Assembly: GCF_016026235.1 (NCBI RefSeq) | Contig: NZ_CP065613.1 | DNA length: 64,000 bases | Source: Escherichia coli | Lineage (GTDB): Bacteria > Pseudomonadota > Gammaproteobacteria > Enterobacterales > Enterobacteriaceae | Reading direction: 5' to 3' (one strand) | Shown here: piece by piece, positions 32,419 through 33,302 of the stretch | Layout of the letters: the number at the start of each line of letters is the position of its first letter | Numbering within the stretch: the first letter of the stretch is position 1 | Translations under genes and position numbers: made by a program | Notes under the pieces: generated by a model | What the model saw: the letters and a program-made list of their open reading frames with translations, nothing else | Databases searched by the model: none | Told to the model about the DNA's origin: nothing

Positions 32419-32495
32419 GCGCCCTTAGCTCAGTTGGATAGAGCAACGACCTTCTAAGTCGTGGGCCGCAGGTTCGAATCCTGCAGGGCGCGCCA
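32419..32495 (+). tRNA. argU: tRNA-Arg (anticodon UCU)
   Basis: 77-nt cloverleaf gcgcccttagctcagttggatagagcaacgaccttctaagtcgtgggccgcaggttcgaatcctgcagggcgcgcca with anticodon loop CUUCUAA. Confidence 0.93.
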
Positions 32496-32540
32496 TTTCT
32501 TCTTCATTTATGCCCATCTTATCCGTTTCCGCTTTGCCCT

Positions 32541-33302
32541 TCACCACATCACTTTTTGTCGCTGTTTGGCGAGATAATTCAACGGTGTCAGGCCGTAAAA
32601 CGCCTTAAAAACAGAGATAAAGTACGACGTGCTGCTATAGCCACATAATTGCGCCACCTGAGTGATATTTTTGTTATCCATCAATAACATCTGTACGGCG
32701 TAACGCATACGACACTCTGTGACAATCTGGCTATAGCTGGTATTTTCGTTTTTTAATTTCTTTTTGAGCAGGCTGGGGCTTAAACATAGCGAACTGGCGA
32801 CAATTCGCAGATTCCAGTAATGCTGAATATCGCTTTGAATAATGCGGCAGACGCTGTCGCGGACGCTGCTGCGTAAGATATACATCAGTAGGGCAATAAA
32901 CCGCGATTGCTCAAGAAAGTTAGACAATACGGTAAAAAGCAATGCGCGCGTCAACTCCGCTTCGCAGGGTTTGCTGGGTTGCTGCTTGCTGTGGTTGGCG
33001 GCTAGCCGGAACACTTCCGGTGTACGGCTATGACAAGCGATAACCGGGGTAGCCAGCCGCGACCAGGGCTTTACACAGGTTAAGTTCTTATTTAAAAACA
33101 ACAGATAATCGTTGATGATGTTACGGTTGATGTGGGTGATTAATACGTGATTTAACGTTGAGAGTTCAATGACGTTATTGTTGCACGCGAAGGCGGCCAG
33201 GTAGTTTTTCGGAAGGGTAAACGTAGCATGGTTATTGACGCTTACCTCTACCTCTTTTTCGGTCAGGATCACCACGCAAGGTTCACTGCTGCTCAATTGC
33301 AT
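32541..33302 (-). CDS. envY: AraC-family transcriptional regulator (envelope/porin thermoregulation)
   Basis: 253-aa ORF with C-terminal AraC-type HTH; synteny upstream of ybcH-nfrA. Confidence 0.85.
   Translation of the reverse strand: MQLSSSEPCVVILTEKEVEVSVNNHATFTLPKNYLAAFACNNNVIELSTLNHVLITHINRNIINDYLLFLNKNLTCVKPWSRLATPVIACHSRTPEVFRLAANHSKQQPSKPCEAELTRALLFTVLSNFLEQSRFIALLMYILRSSVRDSVCRIIQSDIQHYWNLRIVASSLCLSPSLLKKKLKNENTSYSQIVTECRMRYAVQMLLMDNKNITQVAQLCGYSSTSYFISVFKAFYGLTPLNYLAKQRQKVMW

Follow-up and report, generated by a model that had tools for sequence, protein, structure and literature searches.

The interval between argU and envY in the DNA analysed here, a 64,000-nucleotide (64-kb) stretch of Escherichia coli contig NZ_CP065613.1 referred to below as the window, is, to judge from its sequence, almost certainly the unoccupied attB site of the DLP12 family of lambdoid prophages, which integrate at argU. 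This insertion polymorphism is well known, and the window has its most frequent allele; the state at argU is ordinary and already explained. The features at and around the junction are collected in Table 1.

Table 1. Features at and around the argU-envY junction, in coordinates of the 64-kb window.
Feature	Position	Strand	Basis
fimZ, left-flank backbone gene; annotated 210 aa, ORF reaches 32239	31544-32176	-	NCBIfam FimZ 1.7e-134; annotation in collinear genomes
Promoter-like site 5' of argU: TTGACT, 16-nt spacer, TATAAT; 11/12 consensus matches	32360-32387	+	Pattern match only
argU, tRNA-Arg(UCU), intact, 77 nt	32419-32495	+	ARAGORN; RefSeq annotation
att core, single copy, 47 bp (last 45 nt of argU plus TT)	32451-32497	+	K-12 direct repeat
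Native spacer, argU to envY stop, 45 bp	32496-32540		Alignment, repeat search
envY, AraC-family regulator, 253 aa, convergent with argU	32541-33302	-	ORF list
ybcH (DUF4434), right-flank backbone gene	33485-34375	-	NCBIfam; 99% identical to K-12 YbcH
nfrA, right-flank backbone gene, intact	34376-37348	-	NCBIfam PRK09782, full length

The 3' end of argU lies at 32495 and the envY stop codon, a TGA that is read as 'tca' on the + strand at 32541-32543, begins at 32541, so that exactly 45 bp separate the two genes. This distance, given in the original prediction, was confirmed with ARAGORN and the list of open reading frames. argU is the only tRNA gene that ARAGORN reports within the 64 kb (tRNA-Arg, anticodon TCT), and it is identical to K-12 argU by alignment. 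The EnvY protein of the window is 99.6% identical to K-12 EnvY and contains the Pfam domains HTH_AraC and HTH_18. Every RefSeq genome with a matching junction has a tRNA-Arg annotated at argU and an annotated envY. To the left of the junction lie sfmD, sfmH/fimH, sfmF and fimZ and to the right ybcH, nfrA, nfrB and cusS, which gives a backbone order of sfm-fimZ-argU-envY-ybcH-nfrAB-cus. The sfmH/fimH-like adhesin gene of the left flank (30008-31015) is an allelic length variant; it encodes 335 aa in the window, in strain 48 and in FDAARGOS_943, a strain described below, and K-12 and BL21 have a shorter form of 325 aa (978 bp).

The same prediction held that no integrase, phage gene, appY or ompT is present between argU and envY, and none was found anywhere in the 64-kb window. 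A tblastn search with 17 K-12 proteins detected no DLP12, AppY or OmpT protein in the window; it matched only envY and ybcH, together with weak AraC-family paralogy of AppY and YbcM to envY. The whole 21-kb interior of DLP12 gave no blastn match in the window, and the ORF list, tblastn and blastn, each applied to the window, revealed no integrase or phage genes adjoining argU. A relocated block of DLP12, appY or ompT, raised at the outset as a possible objection, is likewise absent within the 64 kb.

The 47-bp core in Table 1 is the block of identity common to attL and attR of K-12, and it is the predicted insertion point of DLP12-type prophages. In the 64 kb, the 47-nt core has 1 match at a threshold of at most 3 mismatches, as compared to 0 expected from shuffled sequence, and a fuzzy search permitting up to 6 substitutions still returned one copy within the window. 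The finding as a whole is one of structure and not of statistics. Alignment resolves the junction into the left flank of K-12 attL, one 47-bp core and the right flank of attR, joined with no gaps, and zero bases are gained or lost relative to the predicted attB. By blastn, window positions 29695-32497 match the attL side of K-12 and positions 32448-34394 match the attR side, and the overlap of the two matches is exactly the core. The 45-bp spacer corresponds to the sequence that follows attR in K-12, from which it is 2 SNPs apart. It had been suggested that a partial att core repeat might be found within the spacer (32496-32540), but only trivial 8-11-nt matches occur there and no excision scar is present.

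In the case of K-12, the site is occupied. In strain RP437, intD directly adjoins argU, the DLP12 genes follow, and appY and ompT come last before envY. A repeat search showed that 50 nt from the 3' half of argU recur in direct orientation 21,302 bp away; the left copy is part of argU (attL) and the right copy is attR. This agrees with the role of argU as the DLP12 attachment site, which had been stated correctly in the original prediction and is attributed to Lindsey et al. (1989) as cited in PMC7918800. The gene order given along with it has to be corrected. appY and ompT had been placed between the prophage and envY; both are inside the att-bounded 21.3-kb DLP12 element, within which ompT is also placed by PMC5723341. 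attR sits 420 bp past ompT and is followed by the same 45-bp spacer and envY as in the window.

Window and K-12 are alike in having the same argU and the same 47-bp core, a fimZ/sfm left flank at 99% identity, and a right flank (the 45-bp spacer, envY, ybcH and nfrA) that is also at 99% identity. The difference lies at the core itself. K-12 has 21.3 kb between two cores, containing intD, emrE, nmpC, the essD-rrrD-rzpD lysis cassette, bor, appY and ompT, whereas in the window a single core copy is present and the DLP12 DNA is missing.

The behaviour of tyrosine integrases that target tRNA genes is established, and by this mechanism the phage integrase in occupied genomes would act on the 3' half of argU carried by the phage and on the chromosomal gene, recombining the two. 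Integration would reconstitute argU at attL, beside intD, while a 47-50-nt duplicate of the 3' half of the tRNA would remain at attR, immediately before the 45-bp spacer and envY. The prophage cargo would then sit between attL and attR, with appY and ompT at its right end. Under this scheme, the state of the window would mean either that the element was never carried by the lineage or that it was lost precisely, through excision by the integrase or through homologous recombination that brought in an empty allele. In both cases the argU-linked copy of ompT would be absent as a consequence, and the strain most likely makes no OmpT.

Because occupied genomes contain 47-50-nt direct repeats around the element, an assembler could in principle join across them, and a prophage collapsed between the duplicated core copies would produce a junction of this kind as an artefact. 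Such a collapse is improbable in the extreme. The junction is shared, at 99.93-100% identity, by five independent assemblies of the lineage that come from different projects, 2,533 complete genomes also carry it, and a 47-nt repeat is shorter than typical reads. The recurrence of the junction in these genomes and in independent assemblies of the same lineage excludes the misassembly that had been named as a possible weakness of the original prediction.

That prediction had offered two origins for the junction, an ancestral unoccupied site or a deletion with its endpoint next to envY. According to the second, an illegitimate or IS-mediated event analogous to that in BL21 removed DLP12, appY and ompT. 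Deletions do exist at this locus: the prophage right end through nfrB is missing from C43(DE3), and in FDAARGOS_943 a deletion bounded by IS1 spans nfrA to cusC. However, the window junction is attB base for base, with no IS, phage remnant or missing flank and with argU and envY intact. Independent random deletions cannot give an identical junction in 2,533 genomes together with an E. albertii-like collinearity. An illegitimate deletion would not regenerate attB, whereas the junction restores it exactly, and this origin is therefore rejected as very improbable. Of the two origins, the unoccupied site is retained, and none of the observations speaks against reading the interval as attB.

The absence of ompT had also been likened to that in E. 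coli B-type strains, and this analogy does not hold. As compared to the references, the window junction is a gap-free attB against K-12, and REL606 and E. coli B carry ompT beside envY, as in K-12. Among B strains, only the BL21 lineage is without ompT, and it lost the gene via a deletion inside an occupied site. In the BL21 derivative C43(DE3), argU is occupied by DLP12 (intD, emrE, an nmpC homologue with an IS1 insertion, and lysis genes), and the deletion extends from prophage tail-fibre remnants to just before cusS, removing appY, ompT, envY, ybcH, nfrA and nfrB. The BL21 lineage and the window are alike in having no ompT beside argU, but the window keeps envY, ybcH, nfrA and nfrB and has no intD and no prophage. 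A BL21-type ompT deletion was considered for the window and ruled out, since envY, ybcH and nfrAB are intact and intD is absent. The window is in a different state from BL21, reached by a different route.

The state of the locus was surveyed in 5,426 complete E. coli genomes by combining searches for the junction, for ompT and for the K-12 right junction. The site is empty, with a contiguous argU-envY junction, in 2,533 of the 5,426 (47%). The K-12-type arrangement of ompT-upstream DNA, attR and envY is found in 1,592 genomes (29%), a B2-type remnant in about 1,051 (19%), and other states in about 250 (5%). With nearly half of E. coli empty at argU, no special deletion is needed to explain the lack of ompT. 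The ompT gene is present in 3,095 genomes, about 452 above the sum of the K-12-type and B2-type classes, and some genomes must therefore carry ompT away from argU. A composite query of junction plus ompT, an indirect test for ompT that reads the number of places matched per record, was applied to 29 junction-bearing records drawn by even spacing. A second chromosomal place was found in six of these empty-site records, namely four O157:H7/O157 strains, cattle strain 149 and STEC1590. By both estimates, about 80% of empty-site genomes are without chromosomal ompT and about 20% (18-21%) have it. An empty site alone therefore does not predict an OmpT-negative strain, as the original prediction had assumed.

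In the case of the B2 strain MS15236, the locus reads folD, argU, an integrase fragment, a tail-fibre-assembly fragment, a methyltransferase, ompT, attR, an envY stub consisting of the 3' end of the gene, and ybcH; the sfm operon, fimZ, appY and a full envY are absent from it. B2/ExPEC genomes and the window are alike in the tRNA anchor and in the right-hand backbone from ybcH onward. The att-bounded remnant measures about 3 kb (MS15236 locus coordinates 7105-10760), a prophage decayed around a retained ompT. argU-anchored islands with ompT are listed for ExPEC as PAI-S88-argU and PAI-IHE3034-argU (PMC7545054).

The O157:H7-type strains are like the window in that their contiguous argU-envY junction is identical. 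In O157:H7 strain TR01, argU is empty and ompT is located at the right end of another lambdoid prophage, beside minCDE. There too the methyltransferase and the tail-fibre-assembly remnants adjoin it, with no argU core (locus coordinates 14670-21500). The ompT of TR01 is 100% identical to that of K-12, and other O157:H7 strains carry a 98.6% allele. This pattern of identities points to phage-to-phage transfer of an ompT module. FDAARGOS_943 differs from O157:H7 in being without such an ompT copy.

The source lineage of the window was traced through nfrA. The exact NfrA protein and the same junction occur in four independent assemblies (Logan SRR3000441, GCA_900449985.1, GCA_901482675.2 and GCA_002461615.1), which are 99.93-100% identical to the window over 12-15 kb; in the case of Logan SRR3000441, identity is 100% over 15 kb. 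Complete E. coli genomes compared to window positions 20001-45000 reach at most 98.9% identity over 25 kb, with the exception of FDAARGOS_943, in a RefSeq collection of complete E. coli that contains no Shigella-named genomes. The lineage has almost no close complete relatives labelled E. coli in RefSeq.

FDAARGOS_943 has the same junction and differs from the window by about 31 mismatches over about 58 kb (about 0.05% divergent). The two share an IS1F-like insertion (glxK/allE) and an ISEc60 insertion beside hokE; in addition to the deletion described above, FDAARGOS_943 has IS1A and IS5 insertions of its own. The low divergence and the two shared IS sites identify FDAARGOS_943 as a clonal relative. 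On its chromosome, the composite search, a megablast run with K-12 ompT that would miss a divergent omptin, found the junction place only, at 100.0% over 2,001 bp, and gave no match to ompT. The annotation of its 155-kb plasmid, over bases 1-150,000, likewise contains no omptin. Since this clonal relative has no chromosomal ompT match, the lineage of the window is probably OmpT-negative. By this proxy, the strain from which the 64 kb derive is probably OmpT-negative as well, and to that extent the predicted phenotype stands; ompT or a different omptin gene may still lie in the source genome beyond the 64 kb.

The 155-kb plasmid of FDAARGOS_943 (NZ_CP065616.1, IncFII) carries ipaH9.8, ospG, ospC2, sepA, virK, capU and phoC along with IS600 and ISSfl3, a gene set that is of the pINV type found in Shigella and EIEC. 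Neither the ipa-mxi-spa region nor icsA was seen on NZ_CP065616.1, which also has a type IVb pilus cluster and an F4/K88-like fimbrial operon; it is an invasion plasmid in degraded or mosaic form. Many IS elements and pseudogenes, besides the pINV-type plasmid, give FDAARGOS_943 an EIEC/Shigella-like character. By way of this relative, we infer that the window comes from an EIEC/Shigella-type lineage without ompT. DLP12 and ompT are reported to be missing from Shigella and EIEC (Nakata et al. 1993, with the review PMC5723341), and the window resembles these organisms in having an argU region without DLP12 and ompT. It differs from them in that no virulence plasmid is seen in it and its 64 kb contain just two IS elements, and its assignment to EIEC is by proxy. 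According to the antivirulence account for Shigella and EIEC, OmpT would degrade IcsA (PMC5723341), and an EIEC/Shigella-type relative without ompT fits this classic account.

Evidence on whether the unoccupied site is also ancestral, as first proposed, points both ways: E. albertii has the adjacency free of prophage, but from K-12 to B2 ompT has diverged about as much as the core genes beside it. The backbone of E. albertii is collinear, with nfrA, ybcH, envY, 0.7 kb of AT-rich species-specific DNA, argU, fimZ and sfm, and the locus has one core copy and no prophage. This prophage-free adjacency indicates that the neighbourhood of argU and envY predates E. coli. In E. albertii NBRC 107761, the 0.7 kb (locus 5470-6176) occupies the place of the 45-bp spacer of E. 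coli. The orphan 160-aa ORF between envY and argU in E. albertii matches no Pfam family, and the insert could represent a small island located at the same 3' end of the tRNA, with no second core copy. The EnvY-based search for outgroup loci did not retrieve E. fergusonii, the cryptic clades or the GTDB E. coli representative, and E. albertii was the only syntenic outgroup that it yielded. It also led to envY-like genes in Citrobacter, Kosakonia and Salmonella arizonae, which are not beside argU and are uninformative on ancestry.

A sub-case of the attB explanation, differing only in history, holds that the site was occupied in a recent ancestor and was then vacated precisely, either because Int and Xis excised the element or because an empty allele took its place through homologous recombination, which would make the empty state derived. 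K-12 and B2 are 98.5% identical in ompT and 97.8% in the neighbouring methyltransferase, values comparable to those of the flanking core genes ybcH (96.6%) and nfrA (98.2%), and the attR core of B2 is decayed at 4 of its 47 nt. The core-like divergence of ompT and the decayed B2 attR suggest that argU already carried the element when A and B2 separated, in which case many empty sites would be secondary. By its sequence divergence, the element may be about as old as the E. coli species. In addition, intD of K-12 is annotated as intact, and Hha induces DLP12 excision (PMC4632033). However, exact excision leaves no trace, and so nothing in the window specifically supports a vacated site. A recombination-patch test gave no sign of a recently imported empty allele: mismatch density is even around the junction and no patch of unusually high similarity is seen. 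The adjacency without a prophage in E. albertii also stands against a vacated site, as does the K-12-identical ompT in a different prophage of TR01. The latter reflects horizontal movement, which weakens the argument from co-divergence. A vacated site is therefore possible but unlikely, and a lineage of the window in which argU was never occupied is the probable history.

For Shigella and EIEC, the choice between loss and primitive absence of DLP12 is left open in PMC5723341. A broader version of the vacated history, which we regard as more doubtful still, is that a DLP12-type element with ompT was at argU in the E. coli ancestor and that EIEC-related lineages lost it by exact excision. If this were true, ompT-less invasive E. 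coli would reflect recurrent, scar-free prophage curing rather than 'black-hole' deletion or primitive absence, and recurrent curing would answer the question that PMC5723341 leaves open.

With the argU-envY interval read as an unoccupied attB, the window can be annotated as coming from a strain without the DLP12 cargo at argU, which comprises appY, ompT, the nmpC porin gene, emrE, bor and the lysis cassette. The likely lack of OmpT is of small practical value: it bears on protein expression work and on how readily cationic peptides and surface proteins are cleaved. The role of argU as the DLP12 site, ompT as cargo, DLP12-less Shigella and EIEC, and argU-anchored ExPEC islands have all been published already. 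The main additions made here are to the gene order, which is corrected, to the analogy with B strains, and to the strength with which an OmpT-negative state can be predicted.

A pattern scan found no terminator-like site in the 45-bp spacer. The first terminator-like hairpin on the + strand after argU, identified by pattern scan only, falls inside envY at 32727-32740. With no hairpin in the spacer, read-through from argU could run antisense into the 3' end of envY in strains with an empty site.

The window contains two IS elements. The IS1-family element at 10157-10924, between glxK and allE, is only 91% identical to IS1A, and at the same glxK/allE spot FDAARGOS_943 is annotated with an IS1F-family transposase pseudogene that has an internal stop. 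The IS4-family element, which is ISEc60 according to the annotation of FDAARGOS_943, is located at about 54.4-55.8 kb (region 54016-56212). On either side of it lies a 391-bp copy of the hokE region (54016-54405 and 55822-56212), the two being only 94% alike, and a 90-bp repeat is present at 55698-55787 and 56201-56290. FDAARGOS_943 retains a single hokE copy. At this length and divergence, the two hokE copies of the window do not fit a target-site duplication, and they look like a product of recombination.
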